Sequence record: NC_054916.1 | Strand: one strand, 5' to 3' | DNA: 64,000 bases | From: Escherichia phage vB_EcoM-G28 | Shown: piece after piece, positions 3,826-45,778 of the stretch | Layout: each line of letters begins with the position of its first letter | Position numbering within the stretch: position 1 is the first letter of the stretch | Notes under the pieces: generated by a model | What the model saw: the letters and a program-made list of their open reading frames with translations, nothing else | What the model was told of the DNA's origin: nothing | The model's database searches: none | Made by a program: the position numbers and the translations under genes

Positions 3826-5450
<1,625 letters not shown>

Positions 5451-9573: not shown

Positions 9574-9601
9574 AACATATACTCTCAACAAGGAAAGCGC
9601 A

Positions 9602-12497: not shown

Positions 12498-13916
12498 TTA
12501 TGGATAGGTATAGATGATACCAGTTTCTAAAGCAGTTTTATGAATGATGTATCCATTACGCGATTCTTGAACATCAACTTCCGGATAGTCTTTCATCATC
12601 TTCTGAAGGGTGTAACGATGCAGGTAATATTTACTATCTGGATCGTCAGTTTTCCAATCTTTACCTTCTTCAGTCATTTTTTGGATTTCATCCATAACCC
12701 ACCAACCGCACCAGATGTAAGCTGAAGTACGGTGTGGAAGAGGATGAACATAAGGCAATTCACCTTCTGGTTCCGGAGCAACTTTATCAGTCACTTGAAC
12801 TTGACCTGTTGTTTTAACTGTTTTGCTATCATAATCAGTTGCTGCAACGACAGCAGTAACTTCAATAGTTTGACTTCCAACAGATGAGGTATCGACAGTA
12901 TATACGTTAGTTGACCCTTCTACAGGAGAAGAATCTTTCTTCCACGAGTAAGTAATTTGTGCTTCTTCTGGAGCATCCGTAACATTAGCAGTAAATGTAG
13001 CCGAAGCATCTTGCTGAACGTTAATAGAAGGAGGAGTCAATGTAACCTGTGGATTCATTGTCTTCTTATTAACTGTCAATGATACTTCATTAGAAGTAAC
13101 TTCCTTTTCATTGTAATTTTCTGCTGTTACTTGGGCTACGCATTTAATTCTTTTTACTCCACTTGTAGTTGGAGTATAGCTAAATGTAGAGCTAGTTTCT
13201 CCACCAACTTGTGAATCATCTACATACCACTGATACGTAGCAGATGCTCCATCAGGTTGAGAAGCTAAGGCAGCAGTAAATTGAACTGGGGTTCCAATTA
13301 CTCCAGCTGAAGGACTAGCAGGAGTTACTGCCAATGTAGTTGTCTGTGTCTTTTTATTAACAGTCAGTGATACTTCATTAGAAGTAACGGTTTTTTCATC
13401 ATAATTTGTCGCGGTTACTTGAGCTACACACTTGATTTTTTTAACTCCGCTTGCGGCAGGAGTGTAATTGAATGTAGCAGAAGTCGCTTCGTCTACAGGA
13501 GAACTGTCAACGTACCATTGATACGTAGCAGATGCACCTGATGGCTGCGAAGCTAAAGCAGCGGTAAATTTAACAGCTGTTCCAATTACTCCTGCTGGAG
13601 GACTATTGGGAGTTACGGCTAAGGTAGTCGTCTGAGTTTTGTTTTTGACTGTGATAGTTGTAGTAGCTTCTGCTGTTTCAGCATCAGTATCTGGAACTGT
13701 GTTTGTTGCAACTACTTTAATAGTCTTTTGACCGGCAGGTCCTTTTAGTACATAACTAAAAGTTGCTTCAGCTCCATCCTGTGGAACATCGTCTACAGTC
13801 CAAGCATAGGTAATAGTTCCACCTCCAGTTTCACCACTGGGTGTAGCAGTAAACTGCTGAGTCTGATCTATAACTCCAGTAGGTGTTTTAGGAGTTATAT
13901 CAACTGTAAAAGCCAT
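12498..13916 (-). CDS. hoc: Hoc (highly immunogenic outer capsid protein), extended to 472 aa
   Basis: Ig-like domain repeats plus C-terminal capsid-binding region; T4 Hoc is 376 aa as I recall. Confidence 0.85.
   Translation of the reverse strand: MAFTVDITPKTPTGVIDQTQQFTATPSGETGGGTITYAWTVDDVPQDGAEATFSYVLKGPAGQKTIKVVATNTVPDTDAETAEATTTITVKNKTQTTTLAVTPNSPPAGVIGTAVKFTAALASQPSGASATYQWYVDSSPVDEATSATFNYTPAASGVKKIKCVAQVTATNYDEKTVTSNEVSLTVNKKTQTTTLAVTPASPSAGVIGTPVQFTAALASQPDGASATYQWYVDDSQVGGETSSTFSYTPTTSGVKRIKCVAQVTAENYNEKEVTSNEVSLTVNKKTMNPQVTLTPPSINVQQDASATFTANVTDAPEEAQITYSWKKDSSPVEGSTNVYTVDTSSVGSQTIEVTAVVAATDYDSKTVKTTGQVQVTDKVAPEPEGELPYVHPLPHRTSAYIWCGWWVMDEIQKMTEEGKDWKTDDPDSKYYLHRYTLQKMMKDYPEVDVQESRNGYIIHKTALETGIIYTYP
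13064..13640 (-). repeat. Tandem, diverged duplication of a ~96-codon Ig-like domain inside hoc
   Basis: Two consecutive protein blocks KTQTTTLAVTP...SNEVSLTVNK are near-identical; the DNA copies are diverged. Confidence 0.75.
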
Positions 13917-13925
13917 AAGTTATCC

Positions 13926-14606
13926 TTATTTTAATGTTACGAAAGAAGAATTGCGTGTTTCACGAATTAAAACTGATCCGTCGCGATTAATGTAATAAAT
14001 TAAGCTAAACAAAGTTTGGTGTGCTGACGCGTGTTCAAAACTAGTTGGATGAGATTTCCAATCAGGAGTTTCAGCGATCCATTGATAAATCCACCAAGGA
14101 ACCGTACAGAATCCTGGATTTTTCCCCAATAATTGAAGATTCGGACTAAAGTTTTCCGGAAGAGTAAATACAGACGGCTTTTCAGATTCAATAATCTCAG
14201 CTACAGCTTGTTCAAACTTTTCTTCAACAAAAGGAGTGTCTTCAATCAAAACATCGGTATTTTCAGGAATTTTATCCGTTTCGACTACTTCAATTTTAAT
14301 ATCAGATTTAACCGGAGAATCAATCAGAAGTGCTGCTTCTGGATTAACTTCTTCATCGTCATATTTTAATCCCTCTGCAGCATCAGCAGCATTGATTAAG
14401 TCTTTAATAGATAACCCATCAGTCTCTGGCATAGGTTCACTAGCGAGCTTCTGGAGGGCTTCTTCAATATCAACAACGATATTATCAAAAGATTTATTCT
14501 TTTTGACCTTTATACCAAACTGTTCAGCGTATTCAGCTAATTTAGCTTTAGCTTCTTTATTATCATCAAGAGCCTTCAACTCTGCAATATAATCTTTATC
14601 TATCAT
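13926..14606 (-). CDS. inh: Inhibitor of prohead protease (Inh)
   Basis: 226 aa; position next to hoc as in T4. Confidence 0.8.
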   Translation of the reverse strand: MIDKDYIAELKALDDNKEAKAKLAEYAEQFGIKVKKNKSFDNIVVDIEEALQKLASEPMPETDGLSIKDLINAADAAEGLKYDDEEVNPEAALLIDSPVKSDIKIEVVETDKIPENTDVLIEDTPFVEEKFEQAVAEIIESEKPSVFTLPENFSPNLQLLGKNPGFCTVPWWIYQWIAETPDWKSHPTSFEHASAHQTLFSLIYYINRDGSVLIRETRNSSFVTLK

Positions 14607-14655
14607 AATATTTCCTCAGTATAAATATAGATATATTTATTACTCGGAAAATAGT

Positions 14656-15273
14656 ATGTACCACTTTGTATATGAAACAACAAATCTAATAAATGGTAAA
14701 AAGTATATAGGAAAACACTCTACTGATGACTTGAATGATGGTTACCTTGGTTCCGGTAAGGCAATTCAGCAGGCTATAAAGAAATATGGTGAAAACAATT
14801 TTTCTAGAACAATACTAAAAGAGTTTAAAACTTCCGAAGAAGCGTACATGTATGAAGAAGAAATTATAACTCCTGAAATAATAAAAAGCAAAAATTATTA
14901 TAATATGAAACCTGGTGGAATTGGTGGAATTGTTATGACTACAGAGGTTATAGCAAAGATGAAAGAATCTTCCGCTAAGAGATTTGAAAACTCACCGGGC
15001 ACGGTATTAGGTACAACTTGTTACACTAATGGAACTAAAAATATTTTTATTAAACCTGGAGAACTTGTTCCAGAAGGATTTGTAAAAGGGATGGTTCATC
15101 CTAATAGAAAGTCCAGAAAAGGATGTAAAGTCAAACCGACTACCACAGGAACTTTTTGGGTCAATAATGGTGCAATAAATAAATTAATACAACCAGACGG
15201 TATTATTCCCGACGGATTTATTAAAGGTCGTCTCATGAAAAGAGATTCTAAAGGCAAATTTAGTAAGGCATAA
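14656..15273 (+). CDS. segE: GIY-YIG homing endonuclease SegE
   Basis: 205 aa; N-terminal GIY-YIG motif (YHFVYET...KKYIGKH); position upstream of uvsW. Confidence 0.85.
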   Translation: MYHFVYETTNLINGKKYIGKHSTDDLNDGYLGSGKAIQQAIKKYGENNFSRTILKEFKTSEEAYMYEEEIITPEIIKSKNYYNMKPGGIGGIVMTTEVIAKMKESSAKRFENSPGTVLGTTCYTNGTKNIFIKPGELVPEGFVKGMVHPNRKSRKGCKVKPTTTGTFWVNNGAINKLIQPDGIIPDGFIKGRLMKRDSKGKFSKA

Positions 15274-15275
15274 TT

Positions 15276-16784
15276 ATGGATATTAAAGTACATTTTCACG
15301 ACTTCAGTCATGTACGCATCGATTGTGAAGAGAGCACGTTCCACGAATTAAGAGATTTCTTTTCGTTTGAGGCCGATGGATATAGATTTAACCCTCGCTT
15401 CAGATATGGCAACTGGGATGGACGAATCCGTCTTTTAGATTATAATCGTCTTCTTCCATTCGGCTTAGTCGGGCAAATTAAAAAGTTCTGTGATAACTTT
15501 GGCTATAAAGCCTGGATTGACCCACAAATTAACGAAAAAGAAGAATTATCAAGAAAAGATTTTGATGAATGGCTTTCTAAATTAGAAATCTATTCAGGAA
15601 ATAAAAGAATTGAACCACACTGGTATCAAAAAGATGCAGTGTTCGAAGGATTAGTTAATCGTCGTAGAATTCTTAATCTTCCAACATCTGCAGGTAAATC
15701 TTTAATTCAGGCTCTGCTTGCGCGATATTATTTGGAAAATTATGAAGGTAAAATTCTTATCATTGTTCCAACAACTGCTCTGACAACTCAGATGGCTGAT
15801 GACTTTGTTGATTATCGTTTATTCAGTCACGCAATGATAAAGAAAATTGGTGGCGGAGCATCAAAAGATGATAAATATAAAAATGATGCACCAGTCGTTG
15901 TTGGTACATGGCAAACTGTAGTAAAACAACCAAAAGAATGGTTCTCACAGTTTGGAATGATGATGAATGATGAATGCCATCTTGCTACAGGAAAAAGTAT
16001 TTCATCTATCATATCAGGTTTAAATAACTGCATGTTCAAATTTGGTCTATCTGGTTCATTACGTGACGGCAAAGCCAATATCATGCAGTATGTTGGAATG
16101 TTTGGCGAAATATTTAAGCCAGTAACGACTTCTAAGTTAATGGAAGATGGGCAAGTAACTGAGCTAAAAATTAATAGTATTTTTCTTCGTTATCCTGATG
16201 AGTTCACTACTAAATTAAAGGGAAAAACTTACCAAGAAGAAATAAAAATTATTACTGGGCTCAGTAAAAGAAATAAATGGATAGCTAAATTAGCTATTAA
16301 GCTTGCGCAAAAAGATGAAAACGCTTTTGTCATGTTTAAACATGTATCACATGGTAAAGCTATTTTCGATTTAATTAAAAATGAATACGATAAAGTTTAT
16401 TACGTATCAGGGGAAGTTGATACCGAAACCCGCAATATAATGAAAACCTTAGCTGAAAATGGCAAAGGAATAATTATAGTAGCTAGTTATGGTGTATTTT
16501 CTACTGGTATTTCAGTTAAAAATCTGCATCACGTTGTTTTAGCGCACGGTGTTAAATCAAAAATCATTGTATTACAAACAATCGGTCGTGTATTACGTAA
16601 GCATGGTTCTAAGACAATAGCAACAGTCTGGGATCTTATAGATGACGCGGGCGTAGTTTCTAAATCAAAAACATCTTCTAAAAAATACTCGCATTTAAAC
16701 TATCTTTTAAAACATGGACTTGATCGTATTCAGCGTTATGCTGATGAAAAGTTTAATTATGTGATGAAAGAGGTTAAACTTTGA
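15276..16784 (+). CDS. uvsW: UvsW DNA/RNA helicase
   Basis: 502 aa; size and position as T4 UvsW. Confidence 0.9.
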   Translation: MDIKVHFHDFSHVRIDCEESTFHELRDFFSFEADGYRFNPRFRYGNWDGRIRLLDYNRLLPFGLVGQIKKFCDNFGYKAWIDPQINEKEELSRKDFDEWLSKLEIYSGNKRIEPHWYQKDAVFEGLVNRRRILNLPTSAGKSLIQALLARYYLENYEGKILIIVPTTALTTQMADDFVDYRLFSHAMIKKIGGGASKDDKYKNDAPVVVGTWQTVVKQPKEWFSQFGMMMNDECHLATGKSISSIISGLNNCMFKFGLSGSLRDGKANIMQYVGMFGEIFKPVTTSKLMEDGQVTELKINSIFLRYPDEFTTKLKGKTYQEEIKIITGLSKRNKWIAKLAIKLAQKDENAFVMFKHVSHGKAIFDLIKNEYDKVYYVSGEVDTETRNIMKTLAENGKGIIIVASYGVFSTGISVKNLHHVVLAHGVKSKIIVLQTIGRVLRKHGSKTIATVWDLIDDAGVVSKSKTSSKKYSHLNYLLKHGLDRIQRYADEKFNYVMKEVKL

Positions 16785-17473
16785 ATTATAAATTAATATA
16801 TGATAATTTAATTAATAGAGCCCAGAATCGGGCTCGCCTTAATGGATACACTGAAACACATCATATAATTCCTAGATGTATGGGTGGTACAAATGATAAG
16901 TGTAATTTAGTAGAACTAACGGCTGAAGAACATTTTATAGCCCATAAACTTTTAGCTAAAATTCATCCAAACCATTACGGTATAATTAAAGCTGTTATAT
17001 GTATGGGGATGAATTCAAATACTCATGAAAGACACGTCAATAAATCTTACGCATGGGAACGTCGTAAAATGGCAGAACTTCAATCCGGCGAAGGTAATCC
17101 ATTTTACGGAAAACACCATACGGAAGAACATAAACAATATATGTCAAAACTCATGAAAAGTCGTCCAATTACATGGGGAAATAAAATTAGTAAAACTAAA
17201 AGAATGAACCCAACGAAATGGACTGAAGAAGCTAAAAGATTACATTCAATCAATCAATCGGGTAAAAATAACGGCATGTATGGAAGGAAACATTCCGCTA
17301 AATCTATTCAGAAAATTAAAGATAACATGCCAGATAATTCAGGAGCTAATAACCCAGCTGCTAAACCTATAGAAGTAAATGGTGTTAAGTATAAATGTAT
17401 GAAAGATGCTTCTAAAGCTACTGGATTATCAATGTACAAACTAAGAATACTTAGAAAAACAGTTAATTTATAA
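16781..17473 (+). CDS. HNH-family free-standing homing endonuclease (MobE paralog), TTG start overlapping the uvsW stop
   Basis: 230 aa; N-terminus ETHHIIPRCMGG...N...EH is an HNH motif and aligns residue-for-residue with the ORF at 45047..45778; first codon is TTG. Confidence 0.75.
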   Translation: MNYKLIYDNLINRAQNRARLNGYTETHHIIPRCMGGTNDKCNLVELTAEEHFIAHKLLAKIHPNHYGIIKAVICMGMNSNTHERHVNKSYAWERRKMAELQSGEGNPFYGKHHTEEHKQYMSKLMKSRPITWGNKISKTKRMNPTKWTEEAKRLHSINQSGKNNGMYGRKHSAKSIQKIKDNMPDNSGANNPAAKPIEVNGVKYKCMKDASKATGLSMYKLRILRKTVNL

Positions 17474-17478
17474 GGGCT
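17467..17478 (+). terminator. Stem-loop (UUCG loop) after the HNH gene
   Basis: gggc-ttcg-gccc. Confidence 0.4.
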
Positions 17479-17486
17479 TCGGCCCT

Positions 17487-17732
17487 TTGGAGAAAAAGAT
17501 GTTACTAGAATTTAAACAATTTCTTTATGAAGCTTCTATTGATGAATTTATGGGTAAAATTGCCTCTTGTCAAACATTAGAAGGTTTAGAAGAACTTGAA
17601 GCTTATTATAAGAAAAGAGTCAAAGAAACTGAATTAAAAGACACTGATGACATCTCTGTGAGAGATGCTTTGGCAGGAAAAAGAGCTGAATTAGAAGATT
17701 CAGACGATGATGAAGTAGAAGAAAGCTTTTAA
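17487..17732 (+). CDS. uvsW.1: Small acidic helical protein (UvsW.1-like)
   Basis: 81-aa ORF downstream of uvsW; synteny. Confidence 0.6.
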   Translation: MEKKMLLEFKQFLYEASIDEFMGKIASCQTLEGLEELEAYYKKRVKETELKDTDDISVRDALAGKRAELEDSDDDEVEESF

Positions 17733-17787
17733 ATTAAAAAAGGCCCAACCGAAAAGGAAGGGCCAAAACTATAGACTAAAGGTCACA

Positions 17788-17955
17788 CTATAGCAAAAGT
17801 TGTGTTTCATTTAATTGTTCTTCCGAACTTTCTGAAACTGGTAGTTCTTTAATGTAATTATAGCAAGGCCCAGGATGTACAGGACCTTTGTCTGTTTCAA
17901 CAACCAATGCAGAATCGATTGGAGTTTTACAGACAACACAAATCTTATCTGACAT
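17788..17955 (-). CDS. 55-aa Cys-containing small protein (T4 uvsY.-2 position), not in the ORF track
   Basis: ATG preceded by GAGGAG; translation MSDKICVVCKTPIDSALVVETDKGPVHPGPCYNY... has CxxC...C spacing; below the 60-aa track cutoff. Confidence 0.55.
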   Translation of the reverse strand: MSDKICVVCKTPIDSALVVETDKGPVHPGPCYNYIKELPVSESSEEQLNETQLLL

Positions 17956-17983
17956 GATTGTCTCCTCTGAATTATATATCTAT

Positions 17984-18208
17984 TTATACAACTCTCATAT
18001 GCATATCAATGCCCATATCTTTAGAATAAAAATATTCATCAAGATATCCAGCAAATTTTCCTTTAATATAAAGGACATCTTCACCACATGGATGGTCGGC
18101 CAGGATACGAATATCCTGACGCTTAAGATTATACTTTTTCATTAAGAATTGAATTTCCGTTTCAAATTCTTCTTCATAATTAAAAGCATCATCAATGTTA
18201 TATCTCAT
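17984..18208 (-). CDS. Hypothetical protein (T4 uvsY.-1 position)
   Basis: 74-aa ORF immediately downstream of uvsY. Confidence 0.6.
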   Translation of the reverse strand: MRYNIDDAFNYEEEFETEIQFLMKKYNLKRQDIRILADHPCGEDVLYIKGKFAGYLDEYFYSKDMGIDMHMRVV

Positions 18209-18621
18209 TATTTTCCAGCCTCAAATGCCCGCATGTCTTGAATATGCTTAATAGCAAATCCACGTGATTTAATAGCATCAAGAGCTCCGCTACAGAAATC
18301 CAATAAAATCCCCCAATACTGTAACGATGTATCAACCTTTAAAACATCCTTATCAGCTGATAGAACTGTCTTCATTTCTGATTTCTCGTAACGATCCATA
18401 CTAAATTCATCACCATCTCCTCGTCCCGAGTAGTAGTCTAATTTAGCTTTAAGAGCAACTTTTTTCTGTGCTTCAATTCTAAGCATTTCCTTTTTAATAC
18501 TTGAATGCTTATTAAGCCATTTACTATATAACATCACATTATTAGCTGCTTCATACTGTAATTTAGTCGAATCTATAAACACATCTTTCTTCAATTCTTC
18601 TTGAAGATCTTCTAATCTCAT
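18208..18621 (-). CDS. uvsY: UvsY recombination mediator
   Basis: 137 aa; size and position as T4 UvsY. Confidence 0.9.
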   Translation of the reverse strand: MRLEDLQEELKKDVFIDSTKLQYEAANNVMLYSKWLNKHSSIKKEMLRIEAQKKVALKAKLDYYSGRGDGDEFSMDRYEKSEMKTVLSADKDVLKVDTSLQYWGILLDFCSGALDAIKSRGFAIKHIQDMRAFEAGK

Positions 18622-18662
18622 ATTGTTCTCTATTCAATTGTTATTGGATGGACTTAGATTCA

Positions 18663-18688
18663 TTATACCACGTTTATACGTGAAGCAT
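18663..18688 (-). promoter_or_regulatory. T4 middle-mode promoter (MotA box plus -10) for uvsY
   Basis: Minus strand reads ATGCTTCA (MotA box), 13 nt, then TATAAT. Confidence 0.5.
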
Positions 18689-19086
18689 TATACTCTGTTA
18701 CTGGAAGCCAGTTGTAGTTTTATCTGCTCAATATCATCAGGATTATCGATGACCGAAAAGCGTATTTCTACTATCAGAGTATAATCATCATAAACTGGTA
18801 TTACATTAACTGCTAATTTATCAATACGTGGCTCATAGTTTCTTACTGCGCTTTCGATGTTACGCTCAACAGTATCAGCAGTAAGAGGAGTCATATTCTC
18901 AAAAAGTTGATCAGATAAATCGCATCCAAATTCTGGGTCAAACGGTCTCGACCCTTTTCTGGTTGTGATAATTCCCAAAAGGCTATTTTTAATTGACCTT
19001 AATCCAAGAGATCTAGAAACATCTTTGTCCCAATCCATTTTCATTTCTGGGTCAATGTCAGAATAAAGCTTATTAATATTTGCCAT
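18688..19086 (-). CDS. 25: Baseplate wedge protein gp25
   Basis: 132 aa; synteny. Confidence 0.85.
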   Translation of the reverse strand: MANINKLYSDIDPEMKMDWDKDVSRSLGLRSIKNSLLGIITTRKGSRPFDPEFGCDLSDQLFENMTPLTADTVERNIESAVRNYEPRIDKLAVNVIPVYDDYTLIVEIRFSVIDNPDDIEQIKLQLASSNRV

Positions 19087-43868: not shown

Positions 43869-45047
43869 TTAAAAATATTTTTTAAAACTCATCATAACTT
43901 TATCATCAACATCATTATCAATCTGTGCAACAAGGTAAGATGACAGTTCTACTTCTTGTGGCGCGGATTGAACATTATCAGAATTAAGATATTCACGAAT
44001 CCAAGGATATGGATGTTTAACCGGAGCATCGGTAATTGGGCATGGAAGACCGCACTGTTTCATACGAGATACAGTTAAGTAATCAATAAAGCTCCACATG
44101 CTATTTGTATTTAATCCAGGAACATCGCCATCTTTAAATAAATGAACTGCCCAATCTTTTTCTTGGCGGTTAACTTCCATGAAAATATCAACTGCTTCTT
44201 GTTCACACTCTTGAGCAATTTTAACCCATTCATCGCCATCAGTACCGGATTGAAGTTGACGAATAATATATTGGGTGCCTTTAAGGTGAAGCTGCTCATC
44301 ACGTGCAATGAACTTCATAATCTTGGCATTACCTTCCATGATTTCCATGTTCTTATGGAAGTTAAAGGTACATGCAAAAGATACATAAAAACGAATAGCT
44401 TCTAAGGCATTAATAACGTGCAAACAGAGGTAAAGAGATTTCATTAGTGCTCGTTTAGCTTCGGCTTCTTGTTTAATAGCTCGATTTAAACGAAAAACAG
44501 CATCAGGAGATTCTTTAGCTAGTTCTGTAAATTCTTTAGCGTTTTCCCATTCACGGGTTTTAGTCAGAACATCATCATAATAACGTCCAATTGATTCAGC
44601 ACGTTTCATGATAGCTTCATCTAATACAATCTCATCAAATACCTTTGACGGATCAGTATAAAGATTTCGCATGATATGTGTATATGAACGACTATGAATA
44701 GTTTCACTAAAAGTCCATGTAGCAACCCATGTATCAAGACTTGGGTCTGAAATTAATGACATAAGTACAGCAGATGGCGCACGACCCTGAATGCTATCTA
44801 GAAGTGATTGATACTTCAGATTATTAGTAAAAATATCTTGCTGATATTGAGGAAGCTTGTTAAATTGTGCAGCATCCATCATTAAGTTTACTTCTTCAGG
44901 ACGCCAGAAAAATGACAACTGCTTTTCGGTTAAATCTTCAAAAACTTTATGACGTTGAATATCATAACGCGCAATACCAAGACCTGAACCGAAGAACATA
45001 GGTTCTTTTAAAACATCAACTGGATTTGTATTAAAAACTGTAGACAT
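43869..45047 (-). CDS. nrdB: Ribonucleotide reductase small subunit, uninterrupted (no intron)
   Basis: 392 aa from MSTVFNTNPVD; continuous reading frame; ATG overlaps the mobE stop. Confidence 0.9.
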   Translation of the reverse strand: MSTVFNTNPVDVLKEPMFFGSGLGIARYDIQRHKVFEDLTEKQLSFFWRPEEVNLMMDAAQFNKLPQYQQDIFTNNLKYQSLLDSIQGRAPSAVLMSLISDPSLDTWVATWTFSETIHSRSYTHIMRNLYTDPSKVFDEIVLDEAIMKRAESIGRYYDDVLTKTREWENAKEFTELAKESPDAVFRLNRAIKQEAEAKRALMKSLYLCLHVINALEAIRFYVSFACTFNFHKNMEIMEGNAKIMKFIARDEQLHLKGTQYIIRQLQSGTDGDEWVKIAQECEQEAVDIFMEVNRQEKDWAVHLFKDGDVPGLNTNSMWSFIDYLTVSRMKQCGLPCPITDAPVKHPYPWIREYLNSDNVQSAPQEVELSSYLVAQIDNDVDDKVMMSFKKYF

Positions 45048-45778
45048 TAATTTTTCCTCTTTAAAATTCTGCCGCGTTTCCAACCTGGCGGTATAATATC
45101 ATCTTTACCTATAAGCGTGCATTCACTTCCATTATTAATCCATTTCTTACCGCGGATTCCTTTATAATCTCTTGGTTGTATTTTGTCAAACTTTGCATCA
45201 AGTTGATATGCCCAACGAAATCCATAGGCATATTGAAATTTACCCTCAGCACAATATTTGATATTTGACCCGTTTCCATTAACTGATCTGGACGCTGCCG
45301 CAATAGAGTGAAAGGTTTCTATGAAATCCCCATCTAATGAGAATTTATGTATTTCGATAGATGGGCATGCATACCTATTCACGTTTGATACATGTTGTTT
45401 AGTTTCGTTTTTATGATGCTTGCCTAACATTCCTCTAGGATGAGGATTATTTTTCCAATATTTCTTAAAGAAATCAGAATTAGCTTTAGCAAATAATTTT
45501 CTGTGCAAGCTATACAATCTGTTATTAATTCTATTACCAGCTTTATCTGTTGCCATTAACGTTAACGCAGAGGCAAGACCAAAATGGCCTTCATTTATCT
45601 TGCATAGTAATAGATGCGCTATAAAATGTTCTCTAGCTGTTAATTCAACTAAATTTTCTTTATCATCAGAACCTCCCATGCATTTAGGGACTATATGATG
45701 TGTCTCTTTATATTCGGATAAAGGTTCCCGAGCCTGAGCTCGGGAAATTAGATCATTATAGATTTTTTGATAATTCAT
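45047..45778 (-). CDS. mobE: HNH-family homing endonuclease in the nrdA-nrdB intergenic position (MobE/Hef-like)
   Basis: 243 aa; HNH motif ETHHIVPKCMGG...N...EH; ATG overlaps the nrdA stop (TAATG). Confidence 0.8.
   Translation of the reverse strand: MNYQKIYNDLISRAQAREPLSEYKETHHIVPKCMGGSDDKENLVELTAREHFIAHLLLCKINEGHFGLASALTLMATDKAGNRINNRLYSLHRKLFAKANSDFFKKYWKNNPHPRGMLGKHHKNETKQHVSNVNRYACPSIEIHKFSLDGDFIETFHSIAAASRSVNGNGSNIKYCAEGKFQYAYGFRWAYQLDAKFDKIQPRDYKGIRGKKWINNGSECTLIGKDDIIPPGWKRGRILKRKN

Follow-up and report, generated by a model that had tools for sequence, protein, structure and literature searches.

A T6-type, MobE-like HNH endonuclease gene seated in the 3' end of uvsW in Escherichia phage vB_EcoM-G28, a probable homing element

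Results and discussion

Gene organisation at the uvsW locus

The window analysed here is a stretch of 64,000 nucleotides from Escherichia phage vB_EcoM-G28 (NC_054916.1), and all positions are counted from its first letter. On its + strand, the helicase gene uvsW (15276..16784; 502 aa), taken from the list of open reading frames (ORFs) and named uvsW or DNA helicase in T6, PST and T4, is preceded directly by segE (14656..15273, +), a free-standing homing endonuclease gene of the GIY-YIG family (Pfam SegE_GIY-YIG, E 3e-9) that bears the same name in PST and T4. It is followed by an ORF of 230 aa for a putative HNH homing endonuclease (16781..17473, +; ORF list and sequence) and by uvsW.1 (17499..17732, +; 77 aa; Pfam UvsW-1, E 5.1e-29). 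uvsW, the host gene of the insertion, is thus flanked by two endonuclease genes, an arrangement that had been proposed in a preliminary description made from the sequence alone and is upheld by the Pfam match of the upstream ORF.

The first codon of the endonuclease ORF is TTG (16781-16783) and overlaps the uvsW stop codon TGA (16782-16784) in the form TTGA, as the preliminary description had stated and as both the ORF list and the sequence confirm. A Shine-Dalgarno-like AAGAGGT (16768-16774, +) can be read from the sequence 6 nt (16775-16780) ahead of it. The choice of this start is supported by the conserved N-terminus of the family (MNY...), which begins exactly there, by the orthologues, in which this position is taken by ATG or GTG, and by the presence of TTG in all nine of the nine T6-type copies examined. 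Beyond the endonuclease stop lie a hairpin, GGGCUUCGGCCC (17474..17485, +; read from the sequence), which is identical in T4 strain 147, and the uvsW.1 ribosome-binding site GGAG (17489-17492, +), which is the same as in the genomes with an empty site.

Transcription and RNA features

A pattern search, together with the sequence itself, revealed the T4 late-promoter consensus TATAAATA at 14620..14627 (+), upstream of the segE-uvsW-HNH-uvsW.1 series, and this is the only exact + strand match between positions 9574 and 19737. Scans for sigma-70 promoters and terminators over 14500-18000 gave counts not above those of shuffled sequences and nothing useful upstream of the endonuclease ORF. The gene would have no promoter of its own and be transcribed together with uvsW, probably late in infection and from the consensus upstream of segE, while its translation may proceed at a low level through coupling to the termination of uvsW. 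Low expression plausibly fits a TTG start; the Shine-Dalgarno sequence is strong and is brought by the element itself.

Local folding predicts a GC-rich hairpin, GAGCCC-AGAAUC-GGGCUC, over codons 13-18 of the ORF (16818..16835, +), which at -13.3 kcal/mol exceeds every other local fold of the first 240 nt in stability and is followed by no U-tract. Hairpins of different sequence occupy the same codons in mobE, in the phages Roth77, PSD2002, UPEC01 and PM2 and in three metagenomic relatives, and the internal hairpin/terminator of T4 mobE (PMC2790892) is the positional counterpart. RNA structure hiding the ribosome-binding site or the start codon was also looked for, and the fold of 16735-16830 (-10.2 kcal/mol, z = -0.26) is no better than those of shuffled sequences.

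An HNH nuclease domain joined to an I-TevI-like DNA-binding tail

The 230-aa protein matches PHROG 655, 'homing endonuclease', with an E-value of 3.9e-60. The beta-beta-alpha-metal (HNH) catalytic motif was located in a 21-sequence family alignment at residues 27-55, HHIIPRCMGGTNDKCNLVELTAEEHFIAH (16859..16945, +), with the spacing HH-x13-N-x8-H-x3-H. In the HNH superfamily the catalytic His, a general base, belongs to an HH or DH dyad and is accompanied by a structural Asn and metal-binding His residues. H28, N42, H51 and H55 are invariant in the alignment and H27 is nearly so, and all five of these HNH residues, whose absence the preliminary description had named as grounds for doubt, are present in the protein studied.

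In a profile comparison, each of these residues has its counterpart in the HNH motif of E. coli McrA (6ghc, E 3.5e-4), and the family profile also matches the motif of a group II intron maturase. The score against Pfam HNH (PF01844) stays under the curated cut-off (16.2 bits vs 21.4, E 0.012), and 17/21 relatives match the same model at E<=1 (best 8.6e-5); the model expects CxxC zinc-finger pairs, which this family does not have. An AlphaFold2 model (mean pLDDT 83, pTM 0.50) places strands at residues 24-28 and 43-47 and then a helix at 48-61, which is the beta-beta-alpha order expected of an HNH core. When the whole model was compared with the PDB by Foldseek, the HNH chains (Cas8-HNH, McrA, Gme HNH) were matched weakly (E 0.4-1.3), probably owing to the extended multi-domain chain.

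The C-terminal part, residues ~94-218 (17060..17434, +), was assigned by Pfam and profile searches to DNA binding, with two NUMOD3 motifs (Pfam NUMOD3, E 7.6e-14, two stretches) and an I-TevI-like helix-turn-helix. The DNA-binding domain of I-TevI (1i3j) is matched by phmmer (E 0.006, residues 157-216), by the profile (E 8.7e-5) and by Foldseek with a probability of 0.99 but an E-value of 0.11. Thus, the C-terminal ~120 residues correspond to the NUMOD3 minor-groove helix and the helix-turn-helix of I-TevI, whereas I-TevI itself carries a GIY-YIG catalytic domain and is intron-encoded, the present protein having an HNH domain and a free-standing gene.

Relationship to MobE

A paralogous MobE-like HNH gene of 243 aa lies elsewhere in the window, between nrdA and nrdB (45047..45778), and its product, a member of the same PHROG, aligns with the uvsW-site protein over 134 aa at 46% identity (E 4e-34). 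The paralogy, with the alignment beginning at residue 1, had been noticed in the preliminary description and is borne out; the strand had been misjudged, since the gene lies on the minus strand and the plus-strand translation contains 17 stops. In its first 110 aa the product of this mobE-position gene shares 63% identity with T4 MobE; its C-terminal half, which carries NUMOD1, is different.

T4 MobE is a free-standing HNH homing endonuclease encoded between nrdA and nrdB (Wilson & Edgell 2009, PMC2790892). Its gene lacks a promoter, is coupled in translation to the gene ahead of it and contains an internal hairpin; the enzyme introduces a nick into the gene next door, and mobE shows high-frequency inheritance (PMC2988022, PMC2790892). 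The N-terminal HNH domain of T4 MobE is 51% identical to that of the uvsW-site protein (106 aa, E 2e-32), and the two genes resemble each other in being free-standing and, as predicted for the uvsW-site gene, promoterless members of an operon whose start overlaps the stop of the upstream gene, in a GC-rich hairpin placed over the same early codons and in a patchy distribution among T-even phages. They differ in location and target, mobE being placed between nrdA and nrdB with nrdB as its target and the present gene at the 3' end of uvsW with uvsW as its presumed target; in length and in the C-terminal DNA-binding region, T4 MobE having 141 aa as against 230 aa with two NUMOD3 motifs and an I-TevI-like helix-turn-helix; and in the start codon, ATG as against TTG, with only the uvsW-site ORF fused to the last codons of its host gene. 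The PHROG assignment, the HNH residues and the MobE homology together agree with the earlier identification of an HNH-type free-standing homing endonuclease gene.

Anatomy of the insertion

Comparison with the empty-site alleles places the insertion point inside uvsW, five codons ahead of its stop. Where T4 strain 147, with an empty site, reads ...ATGAAA ACA GTT AAT TTA TAA, the window reads ...ATGAAA GAG GTT AAA CTT TGA, and this element-supplied end of uvsW (16768..16784, +), comprising GAG GTT AAA CTT TGA (E V K L stop, 16770-16784), has the Shine-Dalgarno sequence of the endonuclease embedded in it. The displaced last five codons being replaced by the element's own, UvsW keeps its full 502 aa. 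The resulting tail, KEVKL, is the native UvsW tail in Proteus phage PM2. At the right junction (17459..17473, +), recognised by the identity to empty-site alleles from there onward, the native uvsW tail ACA GTT AAT TTA TAA (T V N L stop) follows; the endonuclease ORF runs into it (KTVNL*) and ends on the native uvsW stop, and the translation signals of uvsW.1 are unaltered. The earlier placement of the gene 'between uvsW and uvsW.1' must accordingly be corrected to an insertion within the uvsW frame that rebuilds its last codons, while the statement that T4 has no endonuclease between the two genes agrees with the T4 comparison.

The cassette extends over ~16649-17458; it opens with ~120 bp from the 3' coding part of uvsW, in diverged form, and continues with the endonuclease ORF. 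In BLAST searches, the left and right homologies overlap by 11 bp on the empty-site genomes. A repeat finder does not pick up the directly repeated uvsW tail in the window, where the two copies have diverged too far; the repeat becomes visible through the empty-site alleles and through UPEC01 (19 nt) and PM2 (16 nt), in which it is exact. A perfect inverted repeat of 11 nt at the ends of the ORF (16786-16796 and 17463-17473) was judged to be a chance occurrence in AT-rich DNA; its left arm, AATTATAAATTA, is not kept in the orthologues, where AATTATCAAAAA or AATTACGAAAAA stands instead.

The structure of the junctions bears on two views that have entered the databases. According to the first, the gene is an intron-encoded endonuclease, a view encouraged by the 'group I intron endonuclease' strings in the GenBank records of G8, G2540-3 and UPEC01 and by the resemblance of the C-terminal domain to that of the intron-encoded I-TevI. 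Against it, a search of 14000-19000 returned zero matches to group I introns or any other Rfam family, even at E<=1, and the ORF starts in overlap with the uvsW stop and ends on the native one. Both flanking frames are complete in the DNA, and UvsW and the endonuclease are therefore read without splicing; an intron is highly improbable here.

The second view holds that the insertion has made a 'gene in pieces' by splitting a single uvsW into uvsW-A and uvsW-B, the names used in the annotations of PST and T6. A single fused uvsW of 587 aa in the T4 RefSeq record would favour it, as would the precedents of Aeh1 nrdA/mobE and T4 39/60/mobA. However, a separate uvsW (502 aa) and uvsW.1 are already present in the endonuclease-less T4 strain 147, wV7, RB6, JoYop, IME339, LH2 and Roth68, and the T4 RefSeq and T4 strain 147 sequences differ by small indels at the junction; the literature describes the split as shared by every T4-like genome under study and puts the fused T4 entry down to a sequencing error. 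The split, found in all endonuclease-less relatives and reported to be universal, was thus rejected as a scar of the element and is, by these comparisons, older than the element; the 'gene in pieces' can hardly be correct. The likeness to the precedents lies in the setting, as mobE in Aeh1 nrdA and mobA in T4 gene 39/60 (PMC2988022) are likewise Mob-type HNH genes within a conserved DNA-metabolism gene, with the difference that in uvsW the last five codons alone are displaced and replaced and the uvsW/uvsW.1 division predates the insertion.

Distribution in Tequatrovirus and in other genera

The gene is found at the same site in 47 of ~498 Tequatrovirus records (~10%), mostly annotated, while ~445 have an empty site. 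The copies in T6 (AP018814 EcT6_00183; NC_054907; MH550421) are 99.9% identical at the nucleotide level, as is that of Yersinia phage PST (KF208315), and several further Tequatrovirus records contain annotated genes with 100% identity. The T6 and PST genes occupy the same place relative to uvsW and uvsW.1, are annotated with the same TTG and show no difference of substance, and by sequence comparison the window carries the T6-type allele. The novelty implied in the preliminary description does not hold, because T6, PST and dozens of relatives already carry the gene. In PST it is called 'mobD' with the note 'MobE'; the former name is an annotation transfer and does not imply orthology with T4 mobD. 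A scan of IMG/VR for carriers yielded only two close relatives, G8 and ZN18, both already in GenBank, the other matches being only remotely related HNH or NUMOD3 proteins with different surroundings, and no paper describing the uvsW-site endonuclease was found in a literature search.

The same junction is occupied in Klebsiella phage Roth77, Dhakavirus PSD2002, Gaprivervirus UPEC01 and Bragavirus PM2, and the corresponding empty junction is seen in the endonuclease-less Roth68. The orthologues share 54-70% identity (57-70% for those placed in genomes). In all four phages, the start codon overlaps the uvsW TGA (ATG in Roth77, TTG in PSD2002 and UPEC01, GTG in PM2) and the last codons of the ORF repeat the uvsW tail of that phage.

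Among the T6-type copies, nine out of nine are intact, and the polymorphic sites include 26 synonymous and 8 non-synonymous ones. Judged from this synonymous excess and the intact copies, the ORF is under purifying selection. The cassette occurs on several uvsW backgrounds, with or without segE.

Diverged uvsW stretches linked to the two endonuclease genes

In a 2.5-kb alignment, all 27 fixed differences between genomes with and without the endonuclease fall in 16649-16763. A hyper-diverged segment of 49 bp (16649..16697, +) accounts for 22 of the 27 and gives UvsW VVSKSKTSSKKYSH in place of VKPKSANTKKKYVH, a peptide motif conserved in T4, PM2, UPEC01 and Roth77; the remaining differences (16718-16763) belong to a moderately diverged, mostly synonymous stretch (16698..16769, +) that is strictly linked to the endonuclease gene. 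Upstream of 16649 the polymorphisms are mosaic and unlinked to the gene, and no endonuclease-linked differences occur downstream of the insertion in the same alignment. LH2 and OES_C-1/2/3 are endonuclease-less, yet carry the 49-bp segment, and in LH2 and OES_C-2 it is combined with T4-type sequence over 16698..16769 and an empty site. A donor of the diverged stretch was sought by distant-mode BLAST with 16640-16784, which gave nothing above ~77% identity outside the carriers, the four recombinant Tequatroviruses excepted; the best full-coverage match outside the carriers is 73%, and PM2, whose UvsW tail resembles the KEVKL tail, has an overall identity of just 68%.

A mirror image of this linkage is seen at the other end of the gene, where the presence of segE is associated with 34 fixed differences, all within 15277-15411, the first 135 bp of uvsW. 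A review lists SegE among the active endonucleases and gives uvsW as its target (PMC2988022, Table 1). The two elements thus resemble each other in adjoining the same host gene, in being present in the window and in being linked to a short, strongly diverged uvsW stretch, and differ in that SegE is a nuclease of the GIY-YIG family located between inh and uvsW. They are inherited independently, as all four combinations of presence and absence were observed.

The linked differences point to 16649-16697 as the candidate recognition or nicking region in endonuclease-less alleles. The diverged stretch could, alternatively, be donor-lineage DNA that arrived with the cassette rather than selected immunity; Roth77, UPEC01 and PM2 bear an orthologue yet keep the ordinary motif VKPKS(A/E)NAKKKY.

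Another reading is that of a decaying or immobile relic, which would have reached the site once and would now be passed on by descent or general recombination alone, homing through the nuclease playing no part. In its favour, the linked uvsW stretch has one and the same left boundary in all nine carriers, which fits a single ancestral acquisition; variable co-conversion tracts are not visible within the stretch, and the TTG start suggests low expression. The intact copies with their synonymous excess and complete set of catalytic residues, the several uvsW backgrounds and the orthologues at the same junction in five genera argue against it, and a relic is considered unlikely.

Probable mode of spread

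Mob-type endonuclease genes are expected to be present in some close relatives and missing from others, always at one position that is cleanly unoccupied in the non-carriers, and this is the pattern seen here. The preferred interpretation, to which we assign a probability of about 0.8, is that the ORF is a free-standing MobE-type HNH homing endonuclease gene, the T6-type allele of a lineage living at the uvsW/uvsW.1 junction of T4-like phages. Homing by the uvsW-site enzyme is suggested by the comparisons above and would proceed in mixed infections, in which the enzyme would nick or cut an endonuclease-less uvsW within the last ~130 bp, the best candidate region being 16649-16697, and recombinational repair of the damaged genome would then bring in a copy of the cassette. 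Through its diverged uvsW stretch the carrier may be immune to its own enzyme with UvsW still functional. The spread over different backgrounds could also owe much to the generally high recombination of T-even phages.

The purifying selection on the ORF and its permanent seat in a recombination/repair operon, presumably co-expressed with uvsW, would also suit a domesticated nuclease that benefits the phage and is not primarily selfish, by excluding co-infecting relatives or by aiding UvsW and UvsW.1 in recombination-dependent replication; Petrov et al. treat homing endonucleases as agents of phage-phage exclusion. Nevertheless, ~90% of the Tequatrovirus genomes manage without the gene, and its patchy distribution and linked diverged flank constitute the signature of a homing element, which segE shows at the other end of uvsW; domestication appears quite improbable. 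Exclusion and homing can go together and are not mutually exclusive.

An extended form of the homing interpretation is put forward tentatively and is, on present comparisons, somewhat doubtful as a whole. One uvsW-junction lineage would span at least five T4-like genera and carry a portable recoded uvsW end with three tasks, namely finishing UvsW, providing the ribosome-binding site with an overlapping, mostly non-AUG start, and conferring immunity; the 49-bp segment would mark the nicking site, and LH2 and OES_C-1/2/3 would represent selected resistant alleles.

Conclusion

The gene, already annotated in T6 and its relatives, is an ordinary, neatly built and probably selfish element, and its value lies in showing cleanly, in a natural setting, how an essential-pathway gene can house a free-standing homing endonuclease gene with no damage. 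The element brings substitute codons, borrows the host stop and would couple its translation to that of the host gene. The analysis corrects two impressions given by the databases, that of a 'uvsW-A/uvsW-B split by an endonuclease' and that of a 'group I intron endonuclease'. On either side of uvsW sits a selfish element, independent of the other and associated with a recoded stretch of its own, and the extended interpretation, if true, would provide a snapshot of the invasion and resistance cycle of a free-standing homing endonuclease, together with a concrete prediction of its target.

Identity and distribution of the HNH gene

The HNH gene, an ORF at the 3' end of uvsW (16781-17473, plus strand, 230 aa), begins with a TTG codon (16781-16783) that overlaps the uvsW stop TGA (16782-16784), as the preliminary description had read it and as the ORF list and the sequence confirm; a good Shine-Dalgarno sequence, AAGAGGT (16768-16774), precedes the TTG by a 6-nt spacer (16775-16780). 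Its product aligns from residue 1 with that of the paralogous HNH ORF between nrdA and nrdB, the mobE-position gene (45047-45778, minus strand, 243 aa), at 46% identity over 134 aa (E 4e-34), and segE, a free-standing GIY-YIG homing endonuclease gene, lies next to uvsW on its upstream side, both as described earlier. The mobE-position product is 63% identical to T4 MobE in the first 110 residues. Its first ~57 residues are nearly identical to T4 MobE (141 aa), beyond which its C-terminal half is unlike that of MobE, longer, and carries a NUMOD1 motif, reflecting either a domain swap or a shortening of T4 MobE.

The novelty implied by that description was not borne out, as the same gene occupies the same site in T6, Yersinia phage PST and others. 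Megablast with the ORF retrieved the full-length gene from 47 phage records (96.8-100% identity), including three T6 records (99.9% identical to the window gene), PST (annotated 'mobD', with the note 'MobE'), ACG-C40, HY03 and UFV-AREG1, and the uvsW helicase gene adjoins it in every record inspected or listed. The identical reading frame, from the TTG, is annotated in T6, PST, EC121, Killian and PYps11T. A T4 probe for the empty site, the uninterrupted junction of endonuclease-less phages, matched 498 Tequatrovirus-level records, with the uninterrupted 652-bp site in about 445 of them and the carriers of the HNH gene as the most diverged class. Thus, about one T-even-type genome in ten carries this accessory gene, which was already known and annotated; T4, as the preliminary description had stated, has no gene between uvsW and uvsW.1. 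A literature search found no paper characterising the HNH gene of the uvsW site, and Petrov et al. 2010 counted three mob-like HNH genes in T6, with nothing more on them.

Protein domains and selection

Pfam detected two NUMOD3 motifs in the product (E 7.6e-14) and an HNH match below threshold (16.2 bits vs 21.4), and the product belongs to PHROG 655, 'homing endonuclease' (E 3.9e-60). The HNH catalytic residues are present and are kept across an alignment of 21 relatives' sequences, with H28, N42, H51 and H55 invariant and H27 nearly so. A profile built from these aligned sequences gave matches to the I-TevI DNA-binding domain (E 8.7e-5) and to two HNH motifs, one in E. coli McrA (E 3.5e-4) and one in a group II intron maturase. 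AlphaFold2 modelled the protein (pLDDT 83) with a strand-strand-helix core, as expected; Foldseek matches of the model in the PDB were all weak, with the DNA-binding domain of I-TevI ranking first. Over its N-terminal 106 residues the protein shares 51% identity with T4 MobE, shown by experiment to be a nicking, mobile endonuclease (PMC2790892). All nine copies compared from different phages are intact with a TTG start, and 26 of their 34 variable sites are synonymous and 8 are not, which indicates purifying selection on the encoded protein. The label 'group I intron endonuclease' in some GenBank records is wrong, because no intron or other RNA family was detected in 14000-19000.

Structure of the insertion site

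In empty-site alleles (T4 strain 147, wV7, RB6, JoYop, KNP5 and IME339), the last codons of uvsW read ...ATG AAA ACA GTT AAT TTA TAA, after which come the hairpin GGGCTTCGGCCC and the ribosome-binding site of uvsW.1. The window has ...ATG AAA GAG GTT AAA CTT TGA at the left junction and ...AGA AAA ACA GTT AAT TTA TAA GGGCTTCGGCCC at the right. Comparison of these ends places the element inside uvsW, five codons before the gene end, so that the placement 'between uvsW and uvsW.1' holds for the junction and not for the exact insertion point. The element supplies a substitute tail, KEVKL for KTVNL, leaving UvsW at 502 residues, and the GAG codon of this tail creates the Shine-Dalgarno sequence of the HNH gene. 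The displaced native tail is fused in frame to the HNH ORF (C-terminus ...LRKTVNL), which terminates at the native uvsW stop, and the sequence downstream is unchanged.

T4 NC_000866 (locus 4180-4200) has TTTAATAAGCTTCGG in place of the TTTATAAGGGCTTCGG shared by T4 strain 147 and all relatives, a net difference of -1 that yields the fused 587-aa uvsW still annotated in RefSeq; this fusion is due only to small sequence errors at the insertion spot, as the literature also supports. In uvsW.1, IME339 carries a 60-bp in-frame insertion homologous to window ~17566 (CDS 291 nt vs 231), probably a tandem duplication, and a 3-nt insertion shared by the window and wV7 adds to the acidic C-terminal tail (17705-17712) an Asp codon (...DSDDDEVEESF) that most relatives lack. 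Elsewhere, the ORF at the position of hoc in T4, wV7, JoYop and Killian (12498-13916, minus strand) encodes 472 aa, compared with 376 aa (1131 nt) for T4 hoc, and within its translation a segment of ~95 aa is repeated (...KTQTTTLAVTP.SP.AGVIGT.V.FTAALASQP.GASATYQWYVD...); the long form is shared by Killian and JoYop.

Orthologues at the same junction

This junction also holds an orthologue in four further lineages; the genome-placed orthologues are 57-70% identical, and clusters reach down to 54%. The start overlapping the uvsW TGA is ATG in Roth77 (a Klebsiella phage whose record gives no genus), TTG in PSD2002 (Dhakavirus) and UPEC01 (Gaprivervirus) and GTG in PM2 (Bragavirus). The last codons of every orthologue ORF copy the tail of the local uvsW, so that the gene is flanked on both sides by a direct repeat of the junction of uvsW stop and uvsW.1 start, exact over 19 nt in UPEC01 and 16 nt in PM2. 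The native uvsW/uvsW.1 overlap in these genera is ATGA, as shown by the endonuclease-less Roth68, and thus the endonuclease start codon stands at the position that a duplicated uvsW.1 start would take. With the window type included, four of five lineages have a non-AUG start, which would fit the tendency of such elements to low-level expression (PMC2988022). In Proteus phage PM2 (locus 745-1620), uvsW is in addition annotated in two pieces separated/overlapped by an 876-nt ORF with no assigned function, which may represent another mobile element inserted into the gene.

Expression

The only exact plus-strand match to the T4 late-promoter consensus near the operon lies upstream of segE (14620-14627), and uvsW is a late gene in T4. 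A promoter scan found no convincing sigma-70-type promoter ahead of the HNH ORF, and folding analysis no RNA structure masking its start; the gene is probably promoterless, co-transcribed with uvsW and translated by coupling to it. A GC-rich hairpin at codons 13-18 (16818-16835, plus strand; stem GAGCCC/GGGCUC) matches the position of the published internal terminator hairpin of mobE and, though without a U-tract, is a candidate counterpart. Many MobE-like genes have such a hairpin at codons ~11-19 with a different stem each time (UCCCGAGC/GCUCGGGA in mobE, GAGAGGC/GCCUCUC in Roth77, AGAAGCC/GGCUUCU in PSD2002, GAGGCCU/AGGCCUC in PM2). It is the strongest local fold of the first 240 nt in 9 of 16 relatives, and mobE's alone has been studied, as a terminator (PMC2790892).

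Diverged uvsW stretches and inferred homing

Nine carriers were compared with six non-carriers over a 2.5-kb alignment, and the 27 fixed differences between the two groups fall without exception within 16649-16763, abutting the insertion; polymorphisms upstream form a mosaic unlinked to the HNH gene, and no endonuclease-linked differences occur downstream. The last 141 nt of the window uvsW (16644-16784) are 72% identical to T4, a gap like that between different genera. The hyper-diverged segment 16649-16697 (plus strand) holds 22 fixed differences and alters a UvsW peptide conserved across genera from VKPKSANTKKKYVH to VVSKSKTSSKKYSH, and the diverged segment 16698-16769 (plus strand) is mostly synonymous in the alignment of carriers with non-carriers. 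Four endonuclease-less Tequatroviruses (LH2 and OES_C-1/2/3) have the first segment together with a T4-type second part, the native tail and an empty site. The T6-type segment (VVSKSKTSSKKYSH) is joined to T4-type sequence at LH2 locus 2001-2145 and OES_C-2 locus 2001-2144, with the crossover in the interval that corresponds to window 16697-16718. These could be resistant alleles from aborted or reversed invasions, or could just as well represent the background that first received the cassette.

The first 135 bp of uvsW (15277-15411) come as two haplotypes, ~73% identical, that co-segregate perfectly with segE presence or absence; every one of the 34 fixed differences linked to segE lies there, with none in the rest of the gene. 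Genomes with both segE and the HNH gene, with either one alone and with neither are all seen. SegE is listed as an active homing endonuclease with uvsW as its target gene (PMC2988022, Table 1), and the stretches linked to the two endonucleases mirror each other at opposite ends of uvsW. This likeness supports, and does not prove, a target for the HNH enzyme in the 3' end of endonuclease-less uvsW, with the diverged stretch protecting carriers. From the anatomy, the population pattern and the MobE and SegE precedents, we infer that the enzyme would nick endonuclease-less uvsW alleles, that repair would copy the cassette into the nicked genome and that the recoded flank would give carriers immunity to their own enzyme. 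The HNH gene, correctly identified at the outset, is thus an accessory gene of T6 type that was already known, as was its class, and only the patching of uvsW by the cassette and the predicted target region may be of specialist interest.
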